Shown: in pieces, positions 12,470 to 57,440 of the stretch | Numbering within the stretch: position 1 is the stretch's first letter | Layout of the letters: each line of letters begins with the position of its first letter | Assembly (NCBI GenBank): GCA_015062525.1 | Contig: SUUM01000004.1 | Location: 24,547 to 88,546, forward strand | From: Alphaproteobacteria bacterium | GTDB taxonomy: Bacteria; Pseudomonadota; Alphaproteobacteria; Rs-D84 | Direction: 5' to 3' | DNA length: 64,000 nucleotides | The notes under the pieces: generated by a model | Databases searched by the model: none | The model's input: only the letters and a program-made list of their open reading frames with translations | What the model was told of the DNA's origin: nothing | Position numbers and translations under genes: made by a program

Positions 12470-12474
12470 GTTCT

Positions 12475-12550
12475 GGGGTTGTAGCTCAGTTGATAGAGCG
12501 CTACGTTCGCATCGTAGAGGTCGTGGGTTTGAGTCCCATCAGCTCCACCA
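12475..12550 (+). tRNA. tRNA-Ala (anticodon CGC)
   Basis: 76 nt; G3:U70 identity pair, loop TTCGCAT, T-loop TTTGAGT, encoded CCA. Confidence 0.8.
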
Positions 12551-12582
12551 AATTTACTTATCGGCTTTGCCGATTAGGAAAT

Positions 12583-12650
12583 TTGAGTGTCTCGGCGGTG
12601 CTTGCACCGACGGACGGAAAGAACTCAAATTGGAACAAACATATTCGATG
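12583..12650. repeat. hairpin element GTCTCGGCGGTGCTTGCACCGACGGAC (single copy of the 27365 tandem-repeat core)
   Basis: Same ~45-bp motif, including flanking aaatttgagt, as the 52-bp tandem units at 27365-27714. Confidence 0.7.
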
Positions 12651-12681
12651 CCGCGAATTGCGGCATTATTAAAAAGTCTTC

Positions 12682-12768
12682 GGGGATATGGCGGAATGGT
12701 AGACGCTGAGGACTTAAAATCCTTTGGTCATTGCGACCGTGTGGGTTCAAGTCCCACTATCCCCACCA
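12682..12768 (+). tRNA. tRNA-Leu (anticodon TAA), type II
   Basis: Acceptor GGGGATA/TATCCCC, loop CTTAAAA, long variable arm, encoded CCA. Confidence 0.8.
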
Positions 12769-12801
12769 CACATTCGCCCAACAAATGGCGATTTTTTATT
12801 T

Positions 12802-12878
12802 GGATGTGTAGCTCAGTTGGTTAGAGCGCTTCGTTCACATCGAAGAGGTCGTTGGTTCGAGTCCAATCACATCCACCA
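12802..12878 (+). tRNA. tRNA-Val (anticodon CAC)
   Basis: 77 nt; anticodon stem CTTCG/CGAAG, loop TTCACAT, T-loop TTCGAGT, CCA. Confidence 0.8.
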
Positions 12879-13791: not shown

Positions 13792-13808
13792 TCTAAATGG
13801 GGGGATTT

Positions 13809-14816: not shown

Positions 14817-14821
14817 TCATA

Positions 14822-15793
14822 ATGTTATTACCGTTGGCATTATTATCGGCATTATATTTTAAAACATCGGATGGTAATATTTATCATACCATTGATAAAA
14901 TACCGGATGGCATGTGCATACTAAACAATAACGGCGCGGAATTGGTGTACGAAGCAAGCAATTTTAACACCTGTAACGAAATTGTATTACAACCCGGATG
15001 TTATCGTGCGGAACTACGTGGCGGAATTGGCTTACAAAATGAATATTGTTTATCCATTGCCGAACAGGATTTTACCCCCACCATATCCGCAATATTCAGT
15101 ATAAACGAACCAACCACGGTATATGTATTCCGTGGTGGCGATGGTAACCCAGGTGGGGTAAATGTTATAAATAACAGAACTGGTGCATTCGGTGGCGGTG
15201 CATCGGGCGTGGACAGCATATTGGTTGTTGGCGACCGTGTATGGCGTGCATCGGGTGGCGCGGGTAAAACGTGTGTAGCCACAAGATATCATCTGAATGG
15301 CGCTACCAGCTCTAGCTCAGTTTCTGTTGGAAATGGTATTGGTGGGGGCGCAACGTCAAAAATCAGCACTCAATCTCGTTTATATTTACAACAAATATCA
15401 GCACTACGCTTCGAGGTATACGGCATTGGCGGTGGTGGTGGCGCGTCACCAAATGGCGCCGGCGGTACAGATTGGCAATTCCACAGTGCTTTTATCAATG
15501 CGGATGAATATGTAAATGCCGGCACCAATGGCACAGATGAACGTGGTGGTAACGGTGGTGATATTTATTCGTGTAATAACCCATCCTGTACATCCATGGT
15601 ATCCGCCACGGGGGGCACGGGTGGCGCAACCGTTACATATGAATGTGGTGGCCAAACCGCAAAATCATATGGTGGTGGTGGCGGTGGCGGGGCATACAAT
15701 GGAAGCAACTCAACCGCCGCCAACGGCGGTAATGGCGGTTCCGGTTCAACCGGCACCAGCGACACATCATTTGTACGAATTTATCGCATATAA
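14822..15793 (+). CDS. Gly-rich protein, paralog 2
   Basis: AGGA RBS; shares VY.FRGGDGN, GGGASGVDS.LVVGD and TG.SDTS.V.IY.I motifs with paralog 1; tandem arrangement. Confidence 0.6.
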   Translation: MLLPLALLSALYFKTSDGNIYHTIDKIPDGMCILNNNGAELVYEASNFNTCNEIVLQPGCYRAELRGGIGLQNEYCLSIAEQDFTPTISAIFSINEPTTVYVFRGGDGNPGGVNVINNRTGAFGGGASGVDSILVVGDRVWRASGGAGKTCVATRYHLNGATSSSSVSVGNGIGGGATSKISTQSRLYLQQISALRFEVYGIGGGGGASPNGAGGTDWQFHSAFINADEYVNAGTNGTDERGGNGGDIYSCNNPSCTSMVSATGGTGGATVTYECGGQTAKSYGGGGGGGAYNGSNSTAANGGNGGSGSTGTSDTSFVRIYRI

Positions 15794-15809: not shown

Positions 15810-16412
15810 TTATTCCCACCCCTGACGTTTTACAAACTGTGATACAGTCGCGGGATAAACCCCCATTATCTTGGATATTTGATATTTACTGACCCCCATA
15901 TCCAATAAATCTTTCACCAGTTTTGTATTTCTGGCCAGGCCCAATTTCCTTGAACGTGTCGCCATCGGTCGCCCCAGTCTTTTGCCCGTGGCACGAATAC
16001 TGTCCAACGACGCCTTGGTTCGTTGCGATATCAGGTTGCGTTCAATCTCGGCCGATAAACCAAATGCAAATGCCATTACCTTGGACTGAATATCATTTCC
16101 CAAACGATAACTTTCCTTGATGGTCCAAACCTGACAATTTTTATTCATACAAAATTCCAAAATTTTCATAATCTCTAGTACCGAACGCCCCAGACGCGAT
16201 ATCTCGGCGGCAATTAAAATATCACCATCATGCAACCCATTTAACAATAACCATAAACGTCTTTTCGATAATGGTTCACGCGATGATATTTTTTCTTGTA
16301 TCCACCGTTCGACCTTTATATGATTTTGCCTTGAAAATTTATTTATCTCGAAATATTGATGTTCGCACGTTTGTTTATTCGATGACACACGAATATAGCC
16401 GATAATCGCCAT
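15810..16412 (-). CDS. serine recombinase, Hin/Gin/Cin-type DNA invertase (resolvase family)
   Basis: 200 aa; N-terminal catalytic motif IGYIRVSS with the Ser nucleophile; C-terminal HTH (GVSKYQISKIMGVYPATVSQFVKRQG); size typical of small invertases. Confidence 0.8.
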   Translation of the reverse strand: MAIIGYIRVSSNKQTCEHQYFEINKFSRQNHIKVERWIQEKISSREPLSKRRLWLLLNGLHDGDILIAAEISRLGRSVLEIMKILEFCMNKNCQVWTIKESYRLGNDIQSKVMAFAFGLSAEIERNLISQRTKASLDSIRATGKRLGRPMATRSRKLGLARNTKLVKDLLDMGVSKYQISKIMGVYPATVSQFVKRQGWE

Positions 16413-16547: not shown

Positions 16548-16883
16548 ATGAGAAAAATTTCATATATCGTTTTTGCGTGTGTATTGTATATCCCATTTGC
16601 AAATGCAAAAATTGCAAGTCAAGAGTATGTTACAACTCATACTAGTAATCACACAAACCCGCATCAGGTCACCAAGGCTCAAGTTGGCCTTGGGAATGTA
16701 CCAAACGTTGACACAACAAATGCGGCTAATATTACTACGGGCACACTTGGGTATGACCGCCTGCCGGTTGGAACGACAGCAAACACCGTTGCCGCCGGAA
16801 ACGATGCCAGGTTTTACGCAATACCAACCGCACAACCAACCGTCAACGCCCCAGAAGGCATGGCGTTGGTATGGTTCAATTAA
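16548..16883 (+). CDS. small secreted protein with a phage tail-fibre-like motif (KAQVGLGNVPNVDT)
   Basis: Strong RBS GGAAGGAAGAG; signal-peptide-like N-terminus; motif resembles the conserved VGLGNVDNTSD block of coliphage tail fibres (from memory, not searched). Confidence 0.45.
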   Translation: MRKISYIVFACVLYIPFANAKIASQEYVTTHTSNHTNPHQVTKAQVGLGNVPNVDTTNAANITTGTLGYDRLPVGTTANTVAAGNDARFYAIPTAQPTVNAPEGMALVWFN

Positions 16884-43944: not shown

Positions 43945-44234
43945 CTAAGTTTTTCCAATTCCTGCTTTGACTTAATCAACCTTTGAATATTATCATGACA
44001 GTCCCTGGCGCACCGAACATGTGCCTGCCCCAGACACAGATTCAATGCCCCAATCAATGAATTCACAATCGCCATATCATAATTTTCATGAACCGCCGTC
44101 GCAATGGCTGCCAATATACACGAAGCACCAATCGCGACACCACCATAACCAACAACCTTGGACATTTTTGCCCTGTCCTGTAATTTTTTTATCATTTCTT
44201 CTGTTGATTTAATCAGTTCTTGTTTTGGTGTCAT
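43938..44234 (-). CDS. small hypothetical membrane protein, translationally coupled to the radical SAM gene
   Basis: AAAGGTAGG RBS; one predicted TM helix; stop overlaps the downstream start. Confidence 0.4.
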   Translation of the reverse strand: MTPKQELIKSTEEMIKKLQDRAKMSKVVGYGGVAIGASCILAAIATAVHENYDMAIVNSLIGALNLCLGQAHVRCARDCHDNIQRLIKSKQELEKLRW

Positions 44235-44405
44235 TATACCTACCTTTGATTTTGATTATTATCTATTTTCTTTTTGGCTTTATATTACAACTATTGTTAT
44301 GATTAAAAGGATAAGCACTCATACCCAATACATTAACCCTAAATCCATATTTCGTCAACAAAAAAGTATTTTATTTCTGGCGCAAATCTTGCTATTGTTG
44401 CAATC

Positions 44406-45032
44406 ATGACAAAGCAAACACCTGACTTTTCGTTGGAAATTACGTGCGGTGCAAAATTGGTTGCCGGCGTGGACGAAGCGGGCCGTGGCCCCCTGTGCGG
44501 TCCCGTTGTTGCGGCGGCGGTGATATTTCCCCGCCACGATATTGAAATTCCGGTAATAATCCGCGATTCTAAACAAATGACACCAACCCAGCGCGCATGC
44601 GCATACGATTGGATAACCCAGAACACACTCTGGGCGGTTGCCGAATGCAGTCCCGCCGAAATTGATGAATTAAATATATTATGGGCATCCATGACCGCCA
44701 TGAAGCGCGCGATTGAAAAACTGGCGCAAAAACCTGACCATTGCCTTGTTGACGGGAACAGATTGCCGCACGATTTAAACGGCACCGCCGTCGTTCGTGG
44801 TGACGCAAAATCATTATCAATCGCCGCCGCATCCATTATTGCCAAGGAAACCCGCGACCGCATCATGCATGATTTATCGCAACAATTCCCCCAATACGGC
44901 TGGGATAAAAACGCGGGCTATCCCACAAAATCACATTTGCGCGCCCTTGACCAATATGGTATAAATGAACATTATCGAAAAAGTTTTGGCCCGATTAAGG
45001 AAAGGATAAAAAATGAAACTTCGCACAATTGA
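44406..45032 (+). CDS. rnhB: ribonuclease HII
   Basis: VAGVDEAGRGPL active-site motif; 208 aa. Confidence 0.9.
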   Translation: MTKQTPDFSLEITCGAKLVAGVDEAGRGPLCGPVVAAAVIFPRHDIEIPVIIRDSKQMTPTQRACAYDWITQNTLWAVAECSPAEIDELNILWASMTAMKRAIEKLAQKPDHCLVDGNRLPHDLNGTAVVRGDAKSLSIAAASIIAKETRDRIMHDLSQQFPQYGWDKNAGYPTKSHLRALDQYGINEHYRKSFGPIKERIKNETSHN

Positions 45033-46182
45033 AAATCTGGATTTACGCGGAAAATATGTATTACTGCGCGACGATTTTAACGTCCAAATTGTTGACGGCA
45101 CAATTACCGAACCATTCAGAATTGATGAAAGTATGCCAACCATCAACGCCCTGCGTACGGCCGGCGCGCGCGTCGCGATTGTTGCCCACCGTGGCCGCCC
45201 ACGGGGGGTGCGTAATATGGAATACACCCTGAAACCCATCGCAGATTATATGGGAATAAAACTAATCCCCGATTGCCTGGACAAATCATTTATGACCGAA
45301 ATGCACGACGGCGACGTGGTATTACTGGAAAATGTTCGATTTTATGCAGGCGAAGAATCAAATGACCCCGCATTTTCCGCGGACCTGGCGCGCGGATTTG
45401 ATATATTTGTAAATGATGCATTTGCGGTGTCCCACCGCGCCCATGCCAGTACCGTTGGTGTGGCGGAAATCCTGCCATCATATGCGGGAAAATTGCTGGC
45501 GTCTGAAATTGAACACCTGACCGCGGTTATGGAAAATCCGGCGCGTCCCCTGCTATCTATCGTCGCAGGCAGCAAGGTTTCCACAAAAATCGGCGTATTA
45601 AAGGCCCTGGCCAAACTGTCCGATACACTGATAATCGGTGGCGCATTGGGTACAACGTTCAACTATGCAACGGGCGGCCGCGTTGGCAATTCGCTGTACG
45701 AAGCTGACCAGCGCAACACCGCCCTGGAAATTTTGGAATACGCAAAACAAAACAACTGTCGCGTGCTTTTGCCATTGGACAAAGGCGTTGCTAAAACATT
45801 TGAACGTGATGCCACGCGCACAAACAAAGACTTCACCGAAATCGAAGACGACGATGTAATTATCGACGCGGGAATCAAAACCACCGAACGCGACGTTGCG
45901 GCAATCCGTGATGCAAAAACGGTTATCTGGAACGGCACGGTTGGCATGGCGGAATGGGCACCAACATGGTCGTATGGGTCATTTGCAGTGGCACGTGCGA
46001 TTGCCGAACAAACCCGCGCCGGCAAATTAACCAGCATTGTTGGCGGTGGTGACACGGTCGCGGCCCTGTCTGCATGCGGGGTAAAAGGCGACATAACCTA
46101 TGTATCCACCGGTGGCGGCGCATTTCTGGAATTTATCGAAGGGCGCACCCTGCCCGGCATTGCAATATTGGAAAACAAATAA
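45013..46182 (+). CDS. pgk: phosphoglycerate kinase
   Basis: 389 aa with conserved PGK motifs (RVDFNVP-like N-terminus, GGGA...G C-terminal hinge). Confidence 0.9.
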   Translation: MKLRTIENLDLRGKYVLLRDDFNVQIVDGTITEPFRIDESMPTINALRTAGARVAIVAHRGRPRGVRNMEYTLKPIADYMGIKLIPDCLDKSFMTEMHDGDVVLLENVRFYAGEESNDPAFSADLARGFDIFVNDAFAVSHRAHASTVGVAEILPSYAGKLLASEIEHLTAVMENPARPLLSIVAGSKVSTKIGVLKALAKLSDTLIIGGALGTTFNYATGGRVGNSLYEADQRNTALEILEYAKQNNCRVLLPLDKGVAKTFERDATRTNKDFTEIEDDDVIIDAGIKTTERDVAAIRDAKTVIWNGTVGMAEWAPTWSYGSFAVARAIAEQTRAGKLTSIVGGGDTVAALSACGVKGDITYVSTGGGAFLEFIEGRTLPGIAILENK

Positions 46183-46208
46183 CAAAAAACCGCCAAATGG
46201 CGGTCTTT

Positions 46209-47468
46209 TTATTTACGATGCTTGGCCTTGTACGCCAAAACGTATGGCACAAATTTGTCGGCATATTTATCACCCAACCACGCCCGCGGGATTAAGATTG
46301 AATTTCCCATGCCTGCGGCCATCTTTTCAACCGTTTCGCCATTTTTGGCATTAATTAATTCGGTCAATTTAACAGTCACAGAATCCATTGTCCCGGGCAA
46401 AATAAATGTAATTTCATCGCCCATGCGCGTTTCATTACGCAATTCAAATGTTATATTTTTATCATCCACCGCTGTAATCACACCCGCCGCATGATAATCG
46501 GATGTACTGCGCGTTGTTTCATAGTTATGCGCCGACGGTGGCACCGGCCCATCAAAGAACGCCGTCGTGTACCCACGCGTTTCCAGGCGATTCAATGCAT
46601 CCATAAACGGCGCGGGGTCAAAATTATCTGGATTCTCCGCATACGCGTCCAATGCGCAACGATACGCATTTACAACCGAACCAACATAGTATTCGGACCG
46701 ATTGCGCCCTTCGATTTTCAGGCTATCCGGTCCCGCCGCCACAACATCCGCCAACCGTGGCATTAAACACAGGTCTTTGGAATTCATAATATATGCGCCA
46801 CGTTCGTCTTCATCAATTGACATTTCGACGCCTGTTTCCACCTCGCGCAAAATCACATCATACTTCCACCGGCACAGTTGCGCGCACGCACCACGGTTTG
46901 CCGGCCGCCCAGTAATAAAGTTAGACAACAAACACCGCCCCGAATACGACATGCACATCGCCCCGTGAACAAAGATTTCCAATCCCACATCCGGACATTC
47001 TGCGCGAATATTTTTAAATTCGCTGTGCGACACCTCGCGCGCCAACACACACAATTTCGCGCCCGCGTTTTGCCAGAATTTGACTGTTTTCGCCGAACAA
47101 ATATTTGCCTGGGTTGAAATATGTATCGGCATATCTGGGAAATTTTCACGCACCCACATAACGATACCTGGGTCAGACACAATCAGCGCATCTGGTTTCA
47201 GATACCGAATAATTTCCGCCACACGCGGCATATTTGCATATTCGTGATCATGCGCAAACAGGTTGAACGCCAAATAAACCCTTTTTCCCGCCGCATGCGC
47301 CAATTCTATACCTTGGCGAACGCCTTCTACATCAATTTTCGCGCGTGCCCGCATTGAAAACCCGGGCAGTCCCGCATAAATAGCATCTGCGCCATATAAA
47401 ATGGCGGTACGAAAGGCATCCAACGTCCCCGCCGGCGCCAATAATTCTGGTAATTTTATGTTTTTCAT
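46209..47468 (-). CDS. peptidase U32 family protein (RlhA/TrhP/UbiU-like)
   Basis: N-terminal LELLAPAG...AI..GADAIY TIM-barrel signature of the U32 family; start at MKNIKLPELLAPAG. Confidence 0.75.
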   Translation of the reverse strand: MKNIKLPELLAPAGTLDAFRTAILYGADAIYAGLPGFSMRARAKIDVEGVRQGIELAHAAGKRVYLAFNLFAHDHEYANMPRVAEIIRYLKPDALIVSDPGIVMWVRENFPDMPIHISTQANICSAKTVKFWQNAGAKLCVLAREVSHSEFKNIRAECPDVGLEIFVHGAMCMSYSGRCLLSNFITGRPANRGACAQLCRWKYDVILREVETGVEMSIDEDERGAYIMNSKDLCLMPRLADVVAAGPDSLKIEGRNRSEYYVGSVVNAYRCALDAYAENPDNFDPAPFMDALNRLETRGYTTAFFDGPVPPSAHNYETTRSTSDYHAAGVITAVDDKNITFELRNETRMGDEITFILPGTMDSVTVKLTELINAKNGETVEKMAAGMGNSILIPRAWLGDKYADKFVPYVLAYKAKHRK

Positions 47469-47603
47469 ACCCCCTATTCTGCCCCAAATAAATATAAAGG
47501 CAAGAAATTTATACATCACATATTTTATCTCGCCTTCATTCAACTTTTTATTGCTAAACGCATTAATTTTGCTATGCTTCGGCGCAAATCAAAAGGATTA
47601 TAT

Positions 47604-48938
47604 ATGTACATACTTGCGTTAAATTGTGGTTCTTCATCATTAAAATATCAGGTTTTTGATGCCAACACAAAAACACCAATAATCAGTGGCAATGTTGAAA
47701 AAATCGGTTCTGCGGATTCCTTTATAACTCAAAAAATACCCGAGGGCACGAAACACACAAAAGAAATCCCCATGAAAAATCATGAAAAAGCATTGGGTGT
47801 TGTGTTGGCTATGCTTGAACATGATTCTATTGATTTGACTAAAATCAATGGTGTTGGACATCGCGTTGTAATGGGTGGCGATAAATTTGCCTCATCAATA
47901 AAAATCAATGACGACGTCATCAGGACCATTAATAAATTATCACCATTGGCACCATTACACAACCCACCTGCCCTGTGTGGCATCATAACCGCGAAACAGT
48001 TATTACCAAACGCGACCCAAATTGCGGTATTTGACACCGCGTTCCACCAAACAATGCCAGACTATGCATACCGTTATGCCGTGCCATCTGCATGGCACCG
48101 TGAACTGGGCGTACGTCGCTATGGTTTTCACGGCACATCACACATGTATGTTTCTAAACGCGCTGCATCAATGCTTAACAAACCCGCAAACGAATGTAAT
48201 CTCATCACAATGCACATAGGTTCTGGCGCATCTGCAACAGCAATCAAAAATGGTGTATCGGTGGACACATCATTGGGCATGACCCCACTGTCCGGTTTGA
48301 CAATGGGCACACGTCCGGGCGACCTGGACCCAGGTGTAATATTATACGTCATGGAACAGCTAAAATTAACACCATCCCAAATGCAAACACACCTAAACAA
48401 AAGTTCTGGTCTTCGGGGTATCACAGAACAATTTGCCGACCGTCGCGATATCGAAGACAACCGCTTCACCAACGATAAATGTCGTCTGGCAATGGATATC
48501 GAGATACACAATGTCAAGAAATACATTGGTGCCTATATGGCGGAATTGGGCCGCACAGATGCGCTGGTATTTACGGCGGGCGTTGGTGAAAATGATGACT
48601 TATTGCGCGATAAATTCTGCCGTGGGATGGAACACATGGGCATAAAAATGGACTTTAACAAAAACAAGGGCTTATTGGCGCGCAACGGCGCTGGTGAATC
48701 TGTGCTCAGCACCCCAGACAGCCCCGTTAAAATCTTTATGATACCAACGAATGAAGAATTGGTAATTGTCGAAGATACCTTGGCAATCATGAATGGAACA
48801 TACAATCCCAATCATTTGGAAATGGATTACAGTTTCGCGCCAAAACCATCGGCCTATGCAACTGCCCAGTCCACATTCAAGAATGCACAACGATTGCAAC
48901 AACAGACACAAAAAACAGCAGCACAACACACAAAGTAA
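47604..48938 (+). CDS. ackA: acetate kinase
   Basis: ILALNCGSSSLKYQVFD N-terminus plus VGHRVVMGG and FHGTSH motifs. Confidence 0.9.
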   Translation: MYILALNCGSSSLKYQVFDANTKTPIISGNVEKIGSADSFITQKIPEGTKHTKEIPMKNHEKALGVVLAMLEHDSIDLTKINGVGHRVVMGGDKFASSIKINDDVIRTINKLSPLAPLHNPPALCGIITAKQLLPNATQIAVFDTAFHQTMPDYAYRYAVPSAWHRELGVRRYGFHGTSHMYVSKRAASMLNKPANECNLITMHIGSGASATAIKNGVSVDTSLGMTPLSGLTMGTRPGDLDPGVILYVMEQLKLTPSQMQTHLNKSSGLRGITEQFADRRDIEDNRFTNDKCRLAMDIEIHNVKKYIGAYMAELGRTDALVFTAGVGENDDLLRDKFCRGMEHMGIKMDFNKNKGLLARNGAGESVLSTPDSPVKIFMIPTNEELVIVEDTLAIMNGTYNPNHLEMDYSFAPKPSAYATAQSTFKNAQRLQQQTQKTAAQHTK

Positions 48939-48966
48939 AAAAATCCCCAACTGCGGATTTTTTACT

Positions 48967-48994
48967 TGCGTTGCGAGTTCATATATGTATAATT
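48967..48994 (+). promoter_or_regulatory. sigma70-like promoter for tRNA-Thr (TTGCGT-N16-TATAAT)
   Basis: -35/-10 hexamers with 16-bp spacing, ending ~10 bp before the tRNA 5' end. Confidence 0.5.
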
Positions 48995-49004
48995 GTTTGG
49001 CATT

Positions 49005-49080
49005 GCCGGTTTAGCTCAGCTGGTAGAGCGGCTGATTTGTAATCAGTAGGTCGTTGGTTCAAGTCCGACAACCGGCACCA
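49005..49080 (+). tRNA. tRNA-Thr (anticodon TGT)
   Basis: 76 nt; acceptor GCCGGTT/AACCGGC; loop TTTGTAA; T-loop TTCAAGT; encoded CCA. Confidence 0.8.
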
Positions 49081-49290
49081 GAATTAAAACGTACCATTTG
49101 GTGCGTTTTTTCGTTGGGTTTCCCTGCCTTTTTGATTTTTGTGTTGGGTGGCGAACTTGCGCGGGGCTGGCTATTTTTATTTTATTCGGGGCATGTAATT
49201 CCAACCCATTTCCGCCCCATGCCCCCAAACCACCAAAAACTGTGATGCAACAATAAAAAAAGGCGCCAGTCTGACGCCTTGCTGTATCAA
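49081..49290. repeat. modular ~300-bp repeat, copy R1 (tRNA-Thr-adjacent, terminator-exit variant)
   Basis: Shares the gcgttttttcgtt...attttattcggggc...ctgtgatgcaacaataaaaa core with R2, R3 and R5; ends in a hairpin terminator for the minus-strand gene. Confidence 0.8.
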
Positions 49291-49296
49291 AAAAAT

Positions 49297-49587
49297 TTAC
49301 TCACCATAAACCATCACACAACTTTCAACAAAGAATGGATACAATCCTTCGTTTCTTTCTTCTATGTAGTAAATTTTGCTTATATCAGCATCTAGTGCCG
49401 CCTTCAAAATACTTTTCTCATATTCTATTGGCAATACAAATAAAGCAATTGCGTTACAGGCTTTTCCAACCTTTAATTCTTCAATTTTTGAAAAATCAGT
49501 TTTATTCAAGTCTATTTGGTTTATATATGGCGCATTTACACAAGCAGATAAAAACAACACCGCAAGCAAACAAAATAATTTTTTCAT
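49297..49587 (-). CDS. small lipoprotein (unknown function)
   Basis: Lipobox LSACV; 96 aa; GGAGAAACAT RBS. Confidence 0.5.
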   Translation of the reverse strand: MKKLFCLLAVLFLSACVNAPYINQIDLNKTDFSKIEELKVGKACNAIALFVLPIEYEKSILKAALDADISKIYYIEERNEGLYPFFVESCVMVYGE

Positions 49588-49683
49588 ATGTTTCTCCTTT
49601 TTACTTACATAAAACTAACAGAATATTTTCATAAAATCAATCTTCAATAAGACATGTACAAGCTGAATAATACTTGTTAAAAC

Positions 49684-49985
49684 GCTATGTGAGGCGATGT
49701 GTGATGCAGGCGGACCAAATCAACTGGCCGACCACTATTGGAAATCTTGGACTTTGGACTCGCCTTGGCATCCCGACAAAGGCTACCCGTTTAAAAACGC
49801 ACCAAACGGTGCGTTTTTTGTTTAGATTTCCCTGCCCTGTTGGATTTTGTGTCGGGTGGCGAACTTGCGTGGGGCGGGCTATTTTTATTTTATTCGGGGC
49901 GTGCAATTCCAACCCAATCCCGCCCCATGCGCTAAAAATACAAAAAACTGTGATGCAAAGTGTGATGCATTGTGGTATAGTTAAC
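49684..49985. repeat. modular repeat copy R2 (promoter-exit variant, TGgTATAGT extended -10 at 49973..49981)
   Basis: Contains the gctatgtgaggcgatgtgtgatgcaggc head, a tRNA-Thr 3'-end-like stretch (CGCCTTGGCATCCCGACAAAGGCTACC), terminator AAAAACGCACCAAACGGTGCGTTTTTT, and TGTGATGCA direct repeats before the -10. Confidence 0.85.
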
Positions 49986-50001
49986 TCAAAAGGCACATAA
50001 T

Positions 50002-51201
50002 ATGCAACAGAGACAATTAAACAAATTAAAAGAAATAACCAAACAAAATTTTAGCTTTGTTCCTGCAGATAAAAATATGTATGGAATCAAATACTATGAA
50101 CACAAATGCACAAATGATGCTGAGTACCATGAAATTGCAGGTATATTAAATCAATACCCCAATATGTTCTATACTTGCATAGAACATAAAGACAACACTG
50201 TTTCTATTGCAGTTTTACAAAATATTTTGGACAAAAAACGCATAGAAAATATAATGTGGCACAAAGATTGCCAAGCATCAAAAGTAGAATCCATAGGTAA
50301 AATTCATGGAAATGATATTTTTTTGGAACAAATCCCGACACAATCTGGAACAATGCACAACGTTATCAATCACAGCAACCGGGCAGTCGCAATCGTAAAT
50401 ATTAACGGCTATCGGTTGCCCTTTTATGTCTCTTCTGGAATTTCCGGGAAGGAAACAGAATATGGTATACCGTCAGAAAAATGGTATCCTTTGCAGGGAA
50501 TATCAGACAGTGGTTGGTTAAATAAAATGCCCGACATGCAAAAAAATCCATACCCAGAACTGGACGAAATTTGCAAAATTCTGGAAACAAAATTCCCCGC
50601 CACAAAATACAAAGAAATGGCACTGAACGAAAGTTTGCCTAGAGCCGACAAAACCATACTTTTGGAATATGCGAACAGCAACTTTCCCGAAGGAACCCCT
50701 TTTAATGAAAACGGATTATACCAATACTACAGAAATCACATAATATATTTGCCAGCAATAATAGACGCATGGCGTTCTAAACCAAATGACTATTTAGAAA
50801 TATCAAAAGGAGTGTTGCAGATTTCTGAATTGAACACAGTAGACAAAATTCGCACATTAGATTTGATGGCCAACTCATCATTAGATGGCGATTATATCTG
50901 GTTAAAACCCGTCCAACATCAATTAAAAAACCAGACAGGCGCAGAAACAAGCCAAAACATACAGAATCAACTGCACAACATTGGTATTTTTTCCAATACC
51001 GTTGTTAGCTCTGATAATAAAAATGGGTTTGGTATACCAATCCAAATATTTCAAGACTATTTTAGACAAAAACAAACACAGAAATTTGTGGATGCCACAC
51101 AAAAAATTGATAAGACAGATTCAAAAAAAGACAAAAGACAAAATATTTCACAACATATTATGAAACGCTTTAAAGACCTTCTTGATAACTATAAACGGTG
51201 A
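50002..51201 (+). CDS. hypothetical protein (399 aa, no recognisable domain)
   Basis: Driven by the R2 promoter; AAAGG RBS. Confidence 0.5.
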   Translation: MQQRQLNKLKEITKQNFSFVPADKNMYGIKYYEHKCTNDAEYHEIAGILNQYPNMFYTCIEHKDNTVSIAVLQNILDKKRIENIMWHKDCQASKVESIGKIHGNDIFLEQIPTQSGTMHNVINHSNRAVAIVNINGYRLPFYVSSGISGKETEYGIPSEKWYPLQGISDSGWLNKMPDMQKNPYPELDEICKILETKFPATKYKEMALNESLPRADKTILLEYANSNFPEGTPFNENGLYQYYRNHIIYLPAIIDAWRSKPNDYLEISKGVLQISELNTVDKIRTLDLMANSSLDGDYIWLKPVQHQLKNQTGAETSQNIQNQLHNIGIFSNTVVSSDNKNGFGIPIQIFQDYFRQKQTQKFVDATQKIDKTDSKKDKRQNISQHIMKRFKDLLDNYKR

Positions 51202-51492
51202 GGCGATGTGTGATGCAGGCTGAGTAATCAACTGTCTGAAACCATTGGAAATCTTGGACTTTGGACTCGCCTTGGTATCCCGACAAAGGCTACCCGTTTA
51301 GAAACGCACCAAATGGTGCGTTTTTTCGTTGGTGGTTCCCTGCTCTTTTGATTTTTGGATTGGGCGCAACACCCATGCGGGGCGGGAGGGTTTTATTTTA
51401 TTCGGGGCGCACAAATCCAACCCAAATCCGCCCCACGACCCCAAAACACCAAAAACTGTGATGCAAAGTGTGATGCAGTGTGGTATAATTTG
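51197..51492. repeat. modular repeat copy R3 (promoter-exit variant, TGgTATAAT at 51481..51489)
   Basis: Same architecture as R2; perfect extended -10 consensus 25 bp upstream of the next ATG. Confidence 0.85.
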
Positions 51493-51514
51493 TAGGAAAA
51501 TAAAGGGATAAGTT

Positions 51515-52612
51515 ATGACCAAGATACCAACAGTCAGAGAAATGGAAGAATTATTACTGCGTGATTCCACAACAGACGATTTGATGCCGGGCATGCCCGA
51601 TAAAGACATGCCTGAAAAACAAATAACCGCAGCAGATGTAAAACACGATGTCTCGGTCTTGGCACGATTGCTAATTCGTGCGTATGTTGGATGGCCGGTT
51701 CACAGCCAGATAATAAAAAGAAAGGTTCTTAAAGACCTGGTTGATATTTATAACAATGCCCACGATATGACGGCGATGGAGTTTTTTGAACAACTGAAAC
51801 CGGTCCTGTCATATATCCCAGACAATCACATATCGCTGCGTTTTAATAGGCAACGCGTTGGAACACACAGGACGCGCAAGGCAGTCAATGTCGGAAAAAA
51901 TATTGCTGGCGACAAACAAATTGCCACACAGATGAAAAATGGCATCGCCATAATCGGCTTTACACGCATGTTGCGCAATGATGATTTTGCCAACACAATT
52001 CTTGAATTTGCTAAAAACACACTGCCCAAATCCACCGCATTGATAATAGACCTGCGTGGCAATGGTGGCGGAAACAGTTTTTATTCCGACAAGTTCTCGG
52101 AACATCTGTGTGGCACACGGATTGATAGCATGAAAGAAGTATATATCAGGGCCACCCCAGAGGCAAAAAAACTACAACATGCGGCACAACCAAATGCCGG
52201 CTGGAAAGATGTTCCGGAATCAGAAGAACTGACATTATGGAAAACAGGCAAAAACTATACGGCCAATCCAGAGAAAGCGTATATGAAACCGATATATATT
52301 CTGACCGATGGCCAGACCGGGTCCAGTGCAGAAATGTTCCTGTTGCGCATGATTCACCACCCATGTGTTCATGTTGTTGGCGATAATTCAGCTGGAATGG
52401 AAGAATACGGCAATATGGCAAACAGTTTCCTGCCACACAGCCAAATAACCGTTGCAGTCGGTATGAACTATCGCAAATTATTACAAGAAGATTTCGAATT
52501 AAATGGACACGACCCCGACATCAAATGTCCAGATGGCACAGATGCATTTGCCGTTGCAATGGCCCAGATTGAAAAAGCCAAAACATTACAATCGCAGACA
52601 CCCGAAAGATAG
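51515..52612 (+). CDS. S41-family (C-terminal processing/tail-specific protease-like) peptidase
   Basis: IIDLRGNGGGNS motif typical of S41 peptidases; no signal peptide. Confidence 0.55.
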   Translation: MTKIPTVREMEELLLRDSTTDDLMPGMPDKDMPEKQITAADVKHDVSVLARLLIRAYVGWPVHSQIIKRKVLKDLVDIYNNAHDMTAMEFFEQLKPVLSYIPDNHISLRFNRQRVGTHRTRKAVNVGKNIAGDKQIATQMKNGIAIIGFTRMLRNDDFANTILEFAKNTLPKSTALIIDLRGNGGGNSFYSDKFSEHLCGTRIDSMKEVYIRATPEAKKLQHAAQPNAGWKDVPESEELTLWKTGKNYTANPEKAYMKPIYILTDGQTGSSAEMFLLRMIHHPCVHVVGDNSAGMEEYGNMANSFLPHSQITVAVGMNYRKLLQEDFELNGHDPDIKCPDGTDAFAVAMAQIEKAKTLQSQTPER

Positions 52613-52622
52613 TCCAAAAATC

Positions 52623-53261
52623 CTACACTGCTTGCGATAACCAATCCGGCATATCAATCAGCGTGAATTTTTCACCATCATATTCCAGTTTGAAATATTC
52701 TGCATTTGGCATTCCGCCACGTGGCCATTTTATATCTGTGAATTGTTTGATTATATTTTTCGCCACCCCCGTATGTGTTGCAATGGCGATTGTTTTGCCG
52801 TCTGAGTTTTTTACGATATCCAATATCGCATTACGAACACGCGCAATAAACATATTATAACTTTCACCGTTTGGTGGGACATAATCGTCATTAGACAGCA
52901 ATGCAAACGGTGCATAAATTACATCACCTGACATATCAATCGGGGTATCTGCAGGGCTATCAGTCAATTTTACAATATGTCCACAAAAATCACCCATATT
53001 CCATTCACGCAAATCACCATTTTGTATAATCTGTTGGTCGCCAGCCACCGCACGTGCTGTATCCAATGCACGCGACAACGACGAAGAATACACAACATCA
53101 AACTTTATACCCGACAATTTTTGTGCCAATGCTTGTGCCTGGGCCACACCATTGGCATTTAATGGCACGTCCAGCCACCCCTGCATACGTTTTTGGATAT
53201 TTGCGTCTGTTTCGCCATGTCGAAAGATATAAAGTATTTTTTTCATGATAGAATTATACAA
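52623..53261 (-). CDS. histidine phosphatase (phosphoglycerate mutase-like) family protein
   Basis: N-terminal RHGETDAN catalytic motif. Confidence 0.7.
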   Translation of the reverse strand: MYNSIMKKILYIFRHGETDANIQKRMQGWLDVPLNANGVAQAQALAQKLSGIKFDVVYSSSLSRALDTARAVAGDQQIIQNGDLREWNMGDFCGHIVKLTDSPADTPIDMSGDVIYAPFALLSNDDYVPPNGESYNMFIARVRNAILDIVKNSDGKTIAIATHTGVAKNIIKQFTDIKWPRGGMPNAEYFKLEYDGEKFTLIDMPDWLSQAV

Positions 53262-53289
53262 TCTAAACCACCAATTATCAACATGTGTT

Positions 53290-53345
53290 ATCTGTTAAAA
53301 TGCTATGTGAGGCGATTTGTGATGCACTAATAAAAAAACCGCCCA
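53290..53345. repeat. partial modular repeat R4 (head motif + terminator)
   Basis: gctatgtgaggcgatttgtgatgca followed by ctaataaaaaaaccgcccaatcgggcgggg. Confidence 0.7.
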
Positions 53346-53361
53346 ATCGGGCGGGGTAATA

Positions 53362-54255
53362 TTACCTGTCGTTTTGGTTGTTATTTTTTGCCCAGGACTT
53401 TTGCATCTGATATTTTATTTCATCAAATCTAAATTCTGCAAAACCAATCAATTCAGACAAAAGCATTTCTTTTTCAGCGCGCGTAAATTTGCGCGGTTTA
53501 TGGGTTGCGACAAAATCCGCACGCATTTGGCGTAATTTTGTAGTCTGTTCCCCTGTTGGCATTTTGTGTGGTGACAAAGCCCTGTCTGTGCGAACAATAT
53601 TATTCTGGCGCAGGTTTATGTACGCCATATCGCCGGGACCTTCGGTATAATTTTGATATTTGAAACCAGTCAGACCAATTGATTCAAAATACAAAATCAT
53701 ACGCTGAAAGAACAAGTTTTCTGCGCTGTGGATATCAAATAATGTTTCCAAACCTAATTCTGTTTGTATTGCTTCCACAGTCATTGTGCTACGCACCGGT
53801 TCACATATCCAATCAAACTGCCACGGCACATCAATGTCCTTATCCAACACCGCTTGTTTTGCTGTTTCAATCTGTTTGCGAAACTCAGATTCGTCATGAA
53901 TATTCAACACACGAATGAAGTCGGCAATTTTATCGCCACACATATACTGAAATAAAACCCCCATAAAGTTCTGCACACTGTGGTCGTTCAGGTCTGGTAT
54001 TTCATCCCAACGCCCAGCCTGCAAATTCACGGGTATTATCTTGGGCTTTGTAATATCAATATTTGGGTCGCGTTTCCATTTTCCTTCGTTCAGATTGGTT
54101 TGTGCATTCACCAATTTGCCAAAGTGTGTCAATGGGCGAAAATAATCAAAATCATAATAAGTGCCATGATACATTGTTAAAGGTTTGCCATCTGTCCCCA
54201 ACAACACCGGCGATAAACAATCGGGCATATCAATAATATATGGAAACGAAACCAT
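53362..54255 (-). CDS. hypothetical protein (297 aa)
   Basis: Start overlaps the GNAT gene stop (operon); no recognisable domain. Confidence 0.5.
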   Translation of the reverse strand: MVSFPYIIDMPDCLSPVLLGTDGKPLTMYHGTYYDFDYFRPLTHFGKLVNAQTNLNEGKWKRDPNIDITKPKIIPVNLQAGRWDEIPDLNDHSVQNFMGVLFQYMCGDKIADFIRVLNIHDESEFRKQIETAKQAVLDKDIDVPWQFDWICEPVRSTMTVEAIQTELGLETLFDIHSAENLFFQRMILYFESIGLTGFKYQNYTEGPGDMAYINLRQNNIVRTDRALSPHKMPTGEQTTKLRQMRADFVATHKPRKFTRAEKEMLLSELIGFAEFRFDEIKYQMQKSWAKNNNQNDR

Positions 54256-54836
54256 TACTTACCCTTATATTCCGACTTTAGTTTCGAAAACAACAGATGA
54301 TTCATATATGTGCCGTCTGGCATTTTATTCGCAGCACGTTCAACACCATCCAGTTGATAACCAGCCTTTTTAATCGAATTTACCGAACAAACATTGCCCT
54401 CCATCGCCTGACGACAGATACGATTTACCCCCAGTTCTTCAAAACCCAATTTATCAATCAGCTTATGCACTTCCTGATTAAAGCCTTGGCCGCGAGCAGA
54501 TTTAATAAACCATACACTGGAACACTGTATCGTATCACAATGGTCTATGTAGTGAAACCGCTGATATCCAACGAATTTGCCATTATGAAAGATATACCAA
54601 ACAACACCGTCTTTATAACCTGCCTCTCGCTGCATCAATTTTAACAGTTCATCGACAGATTCAGGCAAATGATTTTTGTATGATGCTGAATACCGCATAT
54701 ACTGATAATCGGCTGGATTTTCATTTTTCAGCACATCCCACAACATCTGTGCGTTCGCAATAGTTGGCTTTAATACTCGCAACTCTAAACGTTCCGTCTT
54801 AATATCGCGATTAAATATTTCATAAAATTTTTCCAT
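54255..54836 (-). CDS. GNAT family N-acetyltransferase (RimJ/RimL-like)
   Basis: 193 aa with acetyl-CoA-binding motifs (Q/R-x-x-G-x-G/A pattern ARGQGFNQ). Confidence 0.65.
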   Translation of the reverse strand: MEKFYEIFNRDIKTERLELRVLKPTIANAQMLWDVLKNENPADYQYMRYSASYKNHLPESVDELLKLMQREAGYKDGVVWYIFHNGKFVGYQRFHYIDHCDTIQCSSVWFIKSARGQGFNQEVHKLIDKLGFEELGVNRICRQAMEGNVCSVNSIKKAGYQLDGVERAANKMPDGTYMNHLLFSKLKSEYKGK

Positions 54837-54888
54837 CTACTTTGTCCTTTTGTTATCCCATTTATTTTATCACATTTTTTGTTAAAAT

Positions 54889-55195
54889 GCTATGTGATGC
54901 GATGTGTGATGCAGGCGGACCAAATCAACTGTCTGAAAATATTGGAAATCTGGGACTTTGGACTTGCCTTGGCATTCCGACAAAGGCTACCCGTTTAAAA
55001 ACGCACCAAACGGTGCGTTTTTTGTTTGGTTTTCCCTGCCCTGTTGAGTTTTTATGCTTGGCGCGCCACCTGCGCAGGGCGGATGGGTTTTATTTTATTC
55101 GGGGCGTGCAAACGCAACCAAATCCTACCCCACGTCCCCAAAACACCAAAAACTGTGATGCAACAATAAAAATCCGCCCATTTGGGCGGGTTTAT
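54889..55195. repeat. modular repeat copy R5 (terminator-exit variant)
   Basis: Full-length copy ending ctgtgatgcaacaataaaaa + hairpin ccgcccatttgggcgg. Confidence 0.85.
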
Positions 55196-55215
55196 CTTGT
55201 TAAATATTTTCACAA

Positions 55216-55782
55216 TTATTCTGCGTCCTGTTGTTTCTTGCGCAACATTAATTCTGGTTTGCCAGCATTTAATTCTGGCGACACTGCAAAACCCAATCCG
55301 TCTATGAATGATTGAATCTGAGATTTCACTTGCGCCACATCCACATCATCGGCGGTGCAATATTCCACCTCTAAAAACAGCCCCAGATCTGCCACAGTTT
55401 CAAATTCAATTGTATAATCGCCCGCACGGTATGTGCGTTTCAGGTTGTCAATCCGTATCAATTCACGCAACCCCAGCGCATTCATAATATCGCACAAAGT
55501 TGACATATCAGCAACGGTTGTTTCGGATTCATCAGAATACAACCATGTGTCACCGTCAAAATGGTCGTACTTGTACGTGATATAATTTGTGCCGTCTTTT
55601 GCACGTGTGCGACAGCATGCATACAAGCGGCCATTGCTGTCGGGTTGTAAATCTGGGCGCAATGGGTCGTAATAGTATGTATCCACCGTACGTTTATCGC
55701 CCAAGAAGTCAAATTCAGATAATTTACGCAGAACATCTGCTTCGTCTGCGAAAACCTGAACCAAGATTTCAATTTCTTTCAT
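55216..55782 (-). CDS. CYTH-domain protein (triphosphate tunnel metalloenzyme / class IV adenylate-cyclase-like)
   Basis: N-terminal KEIEIL and C-terminal GLFLEVEY motifs typical of CYTH; the Lys of EIExK is replaced. Confidence 0.55.
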   Translation of the reverse strand: MKEIEILVQVFADEADVLRKLSEFDFLGDKRTVDTYYYDPLRPDLQPDSNGRLYACCRTRAKDGTNYITYKYDHFDGDTWLYSDESETTVADMSTLCDIMNALGLRELIRIDNLKRTYRAGDYTIEFETVADLGLFLEVEYCTADDVDVAQVKSQIQSFIDGLGFAVSPELNAGKPELMLRKKQQDAE

Positions 55783-56170
55783 AAGATGCACCCTTTGTGA
55801 TATTCTAAACCGCTTTTTCAGAAATATCAATATTTTCCAATGGAATATAATGTCTGTGACACAAGTAAATCCGCCGGCAGTTGTGGATGGAATAGCAGGT
55901 CCAGGATTGGCACCCAGTGCATATCATCGTGGACACGCAGTTGGATTTCGTATGTGTGGTCCAAAATCTTGTATACGTGCGGAATTACACAAGCAGAAAA
56001 TATTGCGCAACCGATAAGAATCTTTTGTTATCCCGCAATTCAATGCTCACCCAAATTCAACAGATGTCAAAAAGGATTGTATGCTGTGAAAAAATCAGCA
56101 TATATAAACTTTGACAACATAAATATTGTAATCTATACTGATTCTATAACCCCAGCCATAAGGATTTGAA

Positions 56171-57016
56171 ATGCCTGAAAAAAACACCCTGTATGATAAT
56201 TTGCGCAATCCAGTTTCAACAATTGAACGCGGGCAACCAATCCCCAGCGGATTGAACAAGCTGTCTGTGCATGTATGGATTGTAAATGATGCCGGCGAAT
56301 ACCTGTTGCAACAACGCATGGGTACGGCCAAGAAATTTCCAAATATGTGGGGCCAGACTGGTGGCGGGGCAATCGCAGGCGAATCCAGTTGGGATGCGTG
56401 TGTTCGCGAAACAATGGAAGAGTTAGGACTGACACCAGACCCAAAAAAATCTGTATTGGTTGGCACAATTAAGCGACCGATAGATTTCGTTGATGTGTGG
56501 CTAGTGCACAGTAATGTTAAAATTTCTGATTTAAAACCACAGGCAAGCGAGGTGCAATCCGTCAAGTGGGCAACACTGGCGGATATTCAACACATGCAGT
56601 ACGACAATGAATTTATTCCGTCTATTGTTCCAGGGTTTAATATGGTTTTGAATTATCAGAAAATGGTAAATCCCACGCCAGTAAATGCACGTGATTTCTT
56701 GGGCAAATTAGTGCGTGTACAAATGGACAGGCCCCTGGGCAGCAAACATCCAAAACACGGCTTTACATACGAAGTGAATTATGGTTTTATCCCAAACACC
56801 ATATCGGGCGATGGCGAGGAGTTAGATGCGTATGTATTGGGGCCAGATTATCCGTTAAAGGATTTTCTGGGACGATGTATTGCAATCATTCACCGTACTA
56901 ATGACAACGACGATAAACTGATTGTTGTACCGGATGGGTTTGATTTTGCAGATGAATATATTGAACAAAAAACTGCTTTCCAAGAACAGTGGTTCAAGCA
57001 CACGATTATAAGATAA
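56171..57016 (+). CDS. NUDIX hydrolase fused to an inorganic pyrophosphatase-like domain
   Basis: Nudix box GGGAIAGESSWDACVRETMEELGL; C-terminal region matches family I PPase (YEVNYGFIPNTISGDGEELDAYVLG vs E. coli [23 protein letters not shown]). Confidence 0.65.
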   Translation: MPEKNTLYDNLRNPVSTIERGQPIPSGLNKLSVHVWIVNDAGEYLLQQRMGTAKKFPNMWGQTGGGAIAGESSWDACVRETMEELGLTPDPKKSVLVGTIKRPIDFVDVWLVHSNVKISDLKPQASEVQSVKWATLADIQHMQYDNEFIPSIVPGFNMVLNYQKMVNPTPVNARDFLGKLVRVQMDRPLGSKHPKHGFTYEVNYGFIPNTISGDGEELDAYVLGPDYPLKDFLGRCIAIIHRTNDNDDKLIVVPDGFDFADEYIEQKTAFQEQWFKHTIIR

Positions 57017-57035
57017 AATCAAGGGGGGGATAGTC

Positions 57036-57440
57036 ATGCGAACACAAACAACAAGCAGATGTTTAATTGTTCAAGGTGATAGCATCGTTTTATGCAAGCA
57101 CTTGGCTGGCGGTTATTATTTCTTGCCTGGTGGTGGATTGGAAATTGGCGAAACATTGAATCAGTGCATTACACGTGAACTGAATGAAGAAATGGGCGTT
57201 GCAGAATCTGACATCACTATTCATGATGGCATCTTATTGGCTATTGAAAATCAGGGCTATGATTCCAATGGAAATTTCCTGTACGGGATTGAAGTTATTA
57301 AACGTGTGGACATCGATGCAGATGACATAAGCAGCAAAGAGGATTTGATTGGCTTTGAAAAAGTGAAAATTTCTGATTTGCCAGGCACAAAATTATATCC
57401 TGTTGTTATTAAAAATTGGATAATAGAAAGATTCAAATAG
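57036..57440 (+). CDS. NUDIX hydrolase
   Basis: Nudix box GGGLEIGETLNQCITRELNEEMGV. Confidence 0.8.
   Translation: MRTQTTSRCLIVQGDSIVLCKHLAGGYYFLPGGGLEIGETLNQCITRELNEEMGVAESDITIHDGILLAIENQGYDSNGNFLYGIEVIKRVDIDADDISSKEDLIGFEKVKISDLPGTKLYPVVIKNWIIERFK

Follow-up and report, generated by a model that had tools for sequence, protein, structure and literature searches.

A 64-kb stretch of contig SUUM01000004.1 (hereafter the window) carries, directly 3′ of a tRNA-Thr(tgt) gene, an array in which a conserved ~300-bp junction module alternates with unrelated genes. The reading that best accommodates this array, to which we assign a probability of about 60%, is that integrase-less cassettes accreted in tandem at tRNA-Thr and that the array was later remodelled between short repeats. 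Three properties expected of such accretion are found, both in the window and in loci fetched from related genomes (designated by L numbers). The first junction (R1) is continuous with tRNA-Thr, so that the array takes its origin at the tRNA 3′ end. The junctions repeat the tRNA 3′ end, exactly in L019, L020a/b, L038 and L050 and in diverged form in R2, R3 and R5 of the window and in L055 and L059. The content between the junctions varies between related genomes at the same site (L064, L065 and L067 against the window; L068–L070). Judged from these sequence comparisons, the locus appears to be a hotspot where cassettes were added, shuffled and lost between lineages, and the serial integration first proposed in an earlier note on this DNA was largely right. 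The window is assigned to a Candidatus Enterousia-type small-genome gut bacterium and contigs in a large number of gut metagenomes match it. The order that includes Enterousia, Rs-D84, is uncultured, and its genomes are mostly below 1 Mb (PMC12306168).

A junction module confined to one array

An nhmmer profile for the junction module, trained on R2, R3 and R5, recovers five copies 3′ of tRNA-Thr(tgt), all in one shared orientation: four long copies (R1, R2, R3 and R5) and a short fusion, R4, of which only the head is matched (Table 1). Counts of individual motifs point the same way. The 9-mer TGTGATGCA has 10 sites in the window, all on the plus strand and all inside the array, against 1.44 expected by chance; the core 18-mer of the spacer, TTTTATTTTATTCGGGGC, occurs four times against 0.18 expected, and the terminator palindrome has four sites against none. 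Profile and motif counts together uphold the coordinates and anatomy that the earlier note had given for a conserved ~300-bp element recurring 3′ of tRNA-Thr. By the same two approaches no copy of the module lies outside the array within the window, and none is present among the other contigs of the same organism. Two TGTGATGC 8-mers fall outside the island, at 27884 and 33246 on the minus strand, and neither is a junction copy.

This distribution bears on the possibility that the module is a dispersed intergenic repeat that happens to be locally dense, of the kind known as repetitive extragenic palindromes (REP), bacterial interspersed mosaic elements (BIME) or miniature inverted-repeat transposable elements (MITE). 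A repeated intergenic module that contains a palindromic hairpin and is found in many related genomes would suit such an origin. However, REP and MITE families are scattered, occur in both orientations and have terminal inverted repeats, whereas every copy here lies on the plus strand at 49–55 kb, clustered after tRNA-Thr and nowhere else in the 64 kb or the organism's other contigs. Terminal inverted repeats are absent and the first copy is continuous with the tRNA, all of which makes a dispersed repeat very improbable.

The full module has a fixed order of parts. At its left end stand two direct 9-mers, TGTGAGGCG atg TGTGATGCA, with a start-to-start distance of 12 nt; the head, which the earlier note had treated as one motif, is present but holds two repeats of this period instead. 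After these the conserved head continues for ~65 nt, and then come the core of 16 nt (in the window CCGACAAAGGCTACCC) and a bidirectional terminator, AAAAACGCACCnnnnGGTGCGTTTTT. A GC-rich spacer of ~125 nt, comprising TTTCCCTGCC, GGGGCGG, TTTTATTTTATTCGGGGC and CCGCCCC, leads to a tail in which one to three further TGTGATGCA keep the 12-nt period, and the 9-mer (consensus TGTGAKGCR) therefore flanks the tRNA-derived core on both sides. R1 has nothing left of the core, where the tRNA itself stands.

After the tail the module ends in one of two alternative conserved exits. The promoter-type exit (R2, R3) has TGnTATAAT or TATAGT ahead of plus-strand genes, followed by a conserved 5′ untranslated region (5′UTR) and ribosome-binding site (RBS) that reach to the ATG of unrelated plus-strand genes in at least seven distinct copies. 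The terminator-type exit (R1, R5, R4) consists of ACAATAAAAA and a hairpin, for the module in general AATAAAAA plus a CCGCCCnnnnGGGCGG hairpin, and terminates minus-strand genes. All four parts and both exits described in the earlier note are thus present. Terminator-like sites number 16 against 6.7 expected. A simple sigma-70 scan missed the tail promoters on account of their weak −35, and their activity can therefore only be inferred; upstream of the head no promoter-like site was found. The stem of the bidirectional terminator is constant, and its 4-nt loop occurs in either orientation (49086–49110 as against 49793–49818, 51302–51325 and 54997–55022), being ATTT in R1 and AAAC or AAAT in R2, R3 and R5, with both forms among relatives. 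The two loop orientations would fit hairpin-mediated loop inversion.

Could the module instead specify a structured small RNA, running from head to terminator or lying in the GC-rich spacer, or a small protein? There is a strong terminator ~110 nt downstream of the head and a conserved GGGGCGG...CCGCCCC inverted repeat, stop codons are unusually scarce in the modules, a stop-free plus-strand frame of 88–119 codons runs through nine of ten full copies (49674–50000 and 54842–55315 in the window; junction copies in L019, L020, L050 and L059), and gene callers put a 98-aa open reading frame across R2. However, 1-nt indels move the open frame from one copy to the next, its start is not consistent, and the frame across R2 was rejected as spurious. 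Rfam gives no match at E values up to 10, and RNAalifold yields only the terminator and the GGGGCGG/CCGCCCC helix, the variants of which are uncompensated. Together with the lack of a promoter-like site upstream of the head, these results leave an RNA or protein product scarcely credible.

The core of the module is the 3′ end of tRNA-Thr

The last 16–17 nt of tRNA-Thr(tgt) read CCGACAACCGGCACCA, and this core sequence is repeated in the junction modules of relatives. A scan of species-representative genomes with the 18-mer named above gave matches in Candidatus Enterousia and other metagenome-assembled genomes (MAGs) of gut Alphaproteobacteria, among which nhmmer identified true module copies in 17 loci, several with arrays of two to four modules. 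Wherever a complete tRNA adjoining an array is visible in the fetched sequence, it is tRNA-Thr. In the full copies of the four exact loci (two of them in L020) the core, CCGACAACCGGCACCAG, is identical to the last 16–17 nt of the tRNA; at this position R2, R3 and R5 carry CCGACAAAGGCTACCCG, and they share with L055 and L059 a single diverged core (CCGACAAAGGCTACCC). Left of the exact cores the sequence has no relation to the tRNA, and the homology between module and tRNA locus begins at the core and runs on through the terminator and spacer. Headless equivalents of R1, in which tRNA-Thr is followed by the right arm, occur in L008, L018, L019, L023 and L064. The part that the earlier note had seen as resembling the 3′ end of tRNA-Thr is therefore tRNA-derived, and on sequence grounds the last 16–17 nt seem to be the only portion of the module that is clearly so. 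A derivation of the head from a degenerate full-length tRNA is improbable, its z-scores being inconsistent (1.3–4.5, 5′ part) and no Rfam tRNA match appearing at E ≤10.

A second tRNA in the same group of MAGs has a comparable neighbourhood. At tRNA-Gln(ctg) in L043, L053, L056 and L009 the gene is followed by a ~190-nt unit that is closed by a repeat of the tRNA's own 3′ end (CCAGCTGCCCCAACCAAGAT) and looks like a cargo-less mini-element. GGGGCATTTTTATTTTATTCGGGGC is common to these tRNA-Gln loci, in Enterousia MAGs, and to the spacer of the tRNA-Thr junctions. The tRNA-Gln loci show the same phenomenon as tRNA-Thr, and we count them in favour of accretion.

Cargo differs between lineages at the same anchor

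The cargo genes of the window are mutually unrelated, a claim of the earlier note that Pfam upholds. Within the strain the array is fixed, since all 23 of the 23 contigs that encode an identical 399-aa protein or acetate kinase have the same neighbourhood; between lineages both content and order differ. For this reason the picture that the earlier note had set against its own proposal, an identical cassette order with modules at non-tRNA loci and no variability, does not hold.

L064, L065 and L067 encode a CYTH protein identical to the one at the far end of the window array. The arrays that tRNA-Thr anchors there have wholly different cargo (in L064 a 134-aa protein, an HNH_5 protein, a 389-aa protein, a UvrD-like helicase, a DUF4379 protein and an IMS polymerase) separated by head fragments. 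The CYTH coding sequence alone is common to the window and L064, at 99% over 620 nt with both flanks unrelated, and the identity (window 55166–55782, L064 10001–10620) breaks off precisely at the start codon on one side and within the terminator hairpin on the other. Beyond CYTH, L064 has an inverted homolog of the 399-aa protein (394 aa, 68% identical; 8505–9689), and neither protein belongs to a Pfam, NCBIfam or PADLOC family.

Other cassettes have been rearranged in comparable ways, as in the metagenome relatives L068–L070. The TRL cassette in L068 has a different tail in front of it, the 94% identity beginning at the tail repeat, and the spacer upstream of that repeat resembles another copy. 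In L069 the gene for the 297-aa protein is joined to that of the phosphatase and GNAT is absent. The NUDIX genes of the window, to the right of CYTH (56107–57429), are 91% identical to L070 1–1323, where they precede junction fragments and a full module, so the NUDIX island lies inside a junction-bounded array in other lineages. L026 has, between different flanks, an S41 coding sequence with 96.5% identity to that of the window, and S41, GNAT, LysR, MFS, HNH_5 and ABC-F genes recur in differing combinations among relatives. Shared cargo has its homology breakpoints clustered at head repeats, core, terminator and tail repeats. The possibility that the cargo of the window forms a defence island was dismissed, as PADLOC returned only weak NUDIX-type matches.

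A layout resembling a phage-type attachment site and the integrases of tRNA-Thr

Real integrases do occur at this tRNA in relatives. In L015, L031 and L057 a P4-type integrase gene (389–399 aa; Arm-DNA-bind_3 and Phage_integrase domains) lies ~150 nt from a displaced 48-nt half of tRNA-Thr, which is followed by the same right arm. The family has 259 homologs at E <1e-40, and one locus, L075, holds a complete 6-kb element at tRNA-Thr. This element encodes an HTH_17 excisionase-like protein, RloB, AAA_21 and the integrase and ends in a 49-nt copy of the 3′ half of the tRNA; the U32 peptidase gene adjoining tRNA-Thr is the same in L075 and at the window locus. Each arm of the L075 element carries paired direct TTGCTAC motifs with an 11–12-nt period, which point the same way to the left and to the right of the core. 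Its right arm has the terminator first and then TTCCCTGCCCT, as the junction module does. Repeated arm motifs flanking a core that is shared with the bacterial attachment site (attB) are the hallmark of a phage attachment site (attP), and the module has both. Because L075 shows the same layout, the full module can be taken to have the architecture of a complete phage-type attP site with TGTGATGCA as putative arm sites.

Elements of this integrase family often carry defence-type cargo, namely AAA_21 with RloB, Fic, SMODS/CD-NTase and an Mrr-type nuclease (L075 7958–9896; L078 11389–16272; L093 2064–7358; L094 5052–5906). L078 had been considered as an integrase element sitting inside an internal junction, but its left boundary is a patchwork of junction fragments and offers no clean case.

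In the window itself neither the called genes nor tblastn reveal a tyrosine recombinase. The statement of the earlier note that no integrase is present in the window accordingly stands for tyrosine integrases, but a small serine recombinase, an intact Resolvase-family protein of 200 aa, is encoded at 15810–16412 on the minus strand, 33 kb from the array. It lies just downstream of a tRNA Leu-Ala-Leu-Val cluster (12383–12878), and its neighbours at 13797–15793 (+) and 16548–16883 (+) are glycine-rich, tail-fibre-like genes; the locus may be an invertase/phase-variation system or a small island. As recombinase of the array it was rejected, because none of the junction arrays in the fetched loci carries a homolog of it and because its neighbours are tail-fibre-like.

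Probable remodelling between short repeats

At the place of the short junction R4, in which a head is fused to an exit, L055 has a full module. L064rc:2257 is a head fused to an exit with the interior absent, like R4, and at L070:2603 the tail passes straight into the interior of a head and the cargo is absent; these two junctions and R4 are as expected from recombination between direct repeats. The genes around R4 tell how it may have formed. In L026, L056 and L069 the phosphatase and the 297-aa protein are one continuous protein of 486–501 aa, with the phosphatase as its N-terminal and the 297-aa protein as its C-terminal half. In the window the halves are split and stand in permuted order on either side of R4, each with the IDMPDWLS segment, which is encoded by a 25-nt repeat at 52634–52658 and 54210–54234. 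Because the split and permuted halves each retain this segment, R4 is, as far as its sequence tells, the joint of a partial tandem duplication of one cassette that then lost its outer halves, and no degraded integration scar.

Junctions of this kind could also be products of an as yet undescribed cassette-capture platform on tRNA-Thr, in which the paired TGTGATGCA would be crossover sites of a recombinase encoded elsewhere, single genes would be inserted, excised, duplicated or inverted between these sites, and both the cargo and the 240-bp module interior would act as cassettes, in either orientation and with standard promoter-type or terminator-type ends. R4 and L064rc:2257 would then be cargo-repeat-cargo and L070:2603 interior-repeat-interior, in keeping with several breakpoints at model positions 15–36 and 276–296, with the L068 TRL cassette, joined at its tail repeat to a spacer like that of another copy, and with the inversion of homologous cargo between lineages. 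Yet no candidate recombinase is linked to the arrays, direct 9-mers without dyad symmetry would be atypical crossover sites for tyrosine and serine recombinases alike, and deletion or duplication between 9–21-bp direct repeats yields the same junctions without a new enzyme. The ends of BLAST alignments are, moreover, imprecise inside a conserved repeat. A platform of this kind is on balance improbable; if it did exist, a very small symbiont genome would possess an integron-like gene-sampling device derived from a domesticated attP.

Proposed accretion at tRNA-Thr and the case against it

Tandem accretion would work as follows. Small circular elements would insert serially and site-specifically at the tRNA-proximal core, by means of an integrase that acts in trans or has since been lost, the cassettes themselves being integrase-less like cis-mobilizable elements (CIMEs). 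Serial tRNA-proximal insertion would give exactly the pattern seen, with tRNA, core and right arm first (R1) and whole junctions between the cassettes (R2, R3, R5). Deletion and tandem duplication between 9–21-nt direct repeats would subsequently remodel the array, giving rise to R4, to empty junctions and to the fragments in relatives. The junctions would double as expression modules, in which the cassette upstream is shielded by the bidirectional terminator and plus-strand cargo obtains an outward extended −10 promoter, a 5′UTR and an RBS from the right arm. By inference, the TGTGATGCA repeats would be integrase arm sites, strand exchange would take place at the core, the tail promoters would fire and a cassette might still be mobile.

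Of the claims in the earlier note, serial integration at tRNA-Thr with att-derived junctions retained is thus the best supported, by the tRNA-derived core, the P4-type integrases at displaced tRNA-Thr halves and the differences in cargo, although the five junctions need not reflect five separate integrations. A number of observations weigh against it. No integrase lies beside any head-bearing junction among ~40 loci examined, nor beside TGTGATGCA repeats in tblastn searches with the integrase family on all loci, in three viral-contig scans or on five family-member contigs; searches for a cognate integrase returned only TTGCTAC-armed elements or chance matches. The integrases that were found have other cores and arms: every inspected family member has TTGCTAC arms, even at ~50% identity (L078, L093, L094), and the cores, where att is readable, are 48–49 nt long, none combining TGTGATGCA with a 17-nt core. 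The window core has diverged from the tRNA, matching it at 9 of 16 tRNA-derived positions, and any recombination between such copies and the tRNA would therefore damage the latter. Current activity is made less likely by the mismatched arm motif and by the divergence of the core, and the identical array in 23 contigs likewise gives no sign of it. Several shared segments with sharp boundaries end at TGTGATGCA or at the ends of coding sequences, away from the core. Finally, the tail repeats overlap the −35 of the outward promoter, a position that fits an operator as well as an arm site.

This last point belongs to an alternative that is rather unlikely, namely that the module is mainly a regulatory and insulating unit, with a bidirectional terminator and an operator-controlled outward promoter, that spread by tandem duplication and homologous recombination. 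A single transcription factor would use the TGTGATGCA repeats as operators and so co-regulate the cassettes, and the tRNA-like piece would be no more than a remnant from the first time the tRNA flank was duplicated. Besides the tail repeats at the −35 of a conserved TGnTATAAT promoter, a promoter, 5′UTR and RBS that are conserved as far as the start codons of unrelated genes in at least seven distinct copies, the excess of terminator-like sites (16 against 6.7), the split and permuted phosphatase/297-aa gene, as tandem duplication within the array, and an arm motif unlike that of all the integrases found would agree with such a unit. It leaves unexplained, however, why several genomes should retain an exact 16–17-nt tRNA-Thr 3′ end beside a head with no relation to the tRNA, why the entire arrangement mirrors the attP of an actual tRNA-Thr element (L075), and why completely different cargo occupies the same anchor in different lineages. 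Further points against it are the confinement of TGTGATGCA to the island within the window and the lack of any consistently linked regulator gene. Accretion at tRNA-Thr followed by remodelling is preferred here.

Features of the array

The features are listed in Table 1. The GC content of the array (49000–55000) is 0.355–0.425, against 0.42–0.50 in the upstream housekeeping flank (44000–49000). The stop codon of the gene for the 399-aa protein falls inside the first head repeat of R3.

Table 1. The tRNA-Thr gene, junctions and cargo of the array, in window coordinates. Profile: nhmmer match.
Feature	Position	Strand	Evidence	Parts and remarks
tRNA-Thr(tgt), array anchor	49005–49080	+	ARAGORN; Rfam 72.8 bits; alignment	
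R1, headless tRNA-proximal junction (attL-like, B-O-P′)	49081–49280	+	motif; profile 49062–49271 (model 96–299), E 1.8e-46	terminator 49086–49110; spacer with GGGGC..GCCCC and TTTTATTTTATTCGGGGC; single tail repeat TGTGATGCA 49241–49249; terminator-type exit for the TRL gene on the minus strand, hairpin 49260–49280
Cargo 1, TRL-like small protein, 96 aa	49297–49587	−	Pfam PF13146, 37.9 bits	
R2, full junction (attP-like, P-O-P′)	49674–49990	+	motif; profile 49674–49988, E 6e-108	head repeats 49688–49696, 49700–49708; diverged tRNA-3′-end core 49773–49788; bidirectional terminator 49793–49818; tail repeats 49949–49957, 49961–49969; extended −10 TGgTATAGT 49973–49981
Cargo 2, 399-aa protein	50002–51201	+	Pfam, NCBIfam, PADLOC	no family match
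R3, full junction	51197–51498	+	profile 51184–51496, E 3e-106	head repeats 51197–51205, 51209–51217; core 51280–51295; terminator 51302–51325; tail repeats 51457–51465, 51469–51477; TGgTATAAT 51481–51489; conserved 5′UTR and RBS after the −10, reaching the ATG at 51515
Cargo 3	51515–53261	+ and −	Pfam	S41 peptidase 51515–52612 (+); histidine phosphatase (His_Phos_1) 52623–53246 (−)
R4, head fused at TGTGATGCA straight to terminator-type exit	53290–53354	+	profile 53293–53326 (34 nt, head only), E 1e-4	junction interior absent; head 53292–53326; repeat 53318–53326; hairpin 53339–53354
Cargo 4	53362–54836	−		297-aa protein 53362–54255; GNAT acetyltransferase 54255–54836
R5, full junction	54879–55197	+	profile 54879–55197, E 7e-107	head repeats 54893–54901, 54905–54913; core 54977–54992; terminator 54997–55022; one tail repeat 55154–55162; terminator-type exit, hairpin 55174–55189
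CYTH / class IV adenylate cyclase (CyaB)	55216–55782	−	Pfam; TIGR00318 above cutoff	

Comparison with known systems

In the Lambda- and P4-type attP sites of tyrosine integrases that have an arm-binding domain, a core identical to the tRNA 3′ end is flanked by arms with tandem direct repeats in the same orientation, over ~300 bp in total. The junction module shares this core-plus-arms layout and size, for which L075 is the local example, and differs from it in having TGTGATGCA instead of TTGCTAC in its putative arms and a core of 17 instead of 48–49 nt.

Several systems are known in which elements pile up at one gene. Elements which have lost their integration genes but retain att sites, such as CIMEs and those related to ICESt1, accrete in tandem at the 3′ end of their target gene (review PMC5704250, citing Pavlovic 2004 and Bellanger 2011). 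The array resembles these in being, on the preferred reading, a pile of integrase-less elements at the 3′ end of a target gene. Unlike CIMEs, however, its cassettes are very small, with one or two genes in 0.4–1.8 kb, and its junctions are whole ~300-bp attP-like modules in which conservation extends well past the tRNA-derived core and which include both a terminator and an outward promoter. For the array no helper element was identified.

The ssrA islands of Dehalococcoides, again in a small genome, are multiple tandem islands 3′ of one small-RNA gene, bounded by a ~20-nt repeat of the 3′ end of that gene with a conserved motif just upstream; the insertion point lies in the T-loop region and many islands have no integration module (PMC3146451). 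Tandem units bounded by repeats of a small-RNA gene's 3′ end are common to both, but the Dehalococcoides islands are multi-gene and use a large serine recombinase, and conservation per repeat extends over ~85 bp there, as against 300 bp with paired arm-like repeats on both sides in the array. In Prochlorococcus, tycheposon islands adjoin specific tRNAs, including tRNA-Thr, were built by repeated integration, and show partial tRNAs between elements, scattered remnants and plug-in cassette cargo (bioRxiv 10.1101/2020.12.28.424599). The array is likewise anchored at a tRNA and composed of cassettes. Tycheposons are, however, defined by their own recombinase and replication genes, none of which is found at 49081–55800, and the junctions of the array are far longer than their partial tRNAs.

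The earlier note had offered an integron-like system as its alternative. Mostly single-gene, unrelated cassettes do stand in a row, with expression supplied in part by the platform, but no IntI-type integrase is present in the window, and neither attI nor attC was found. Direct modules of 300 bp stand where an integron would have the imperfect palindromes of attC, the only strong palindrome being the terminator hairpin; every junction repeats the promoter, cassettes are found in either orientation and a tRNA serves as anchor. The integron comparison therefore does not hold.

The array differs from the known accretion systems in combining one-gene cassettes with a conserved ~300-bp junction and built-in expression signals. 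An Enterousia-type genome has a flexible region, compact and highly modular, at no fewer than one of its tRNA genes, and the junctions explain assembly breaks at the locus; as they are recognisable by sequence, they also provide a practical marker for the flexible gene pool in MAGs. If the junctions are only fossils, the array would be a clear but ordinary case of tandem accretion followed by decay. If they are still substrates of a recombinase, it would represent an unusually miniaturised form of island accretion, with one gene per cassette and the expression signals inside the att site, and a type intermediate between classical genomic islands and integrons.

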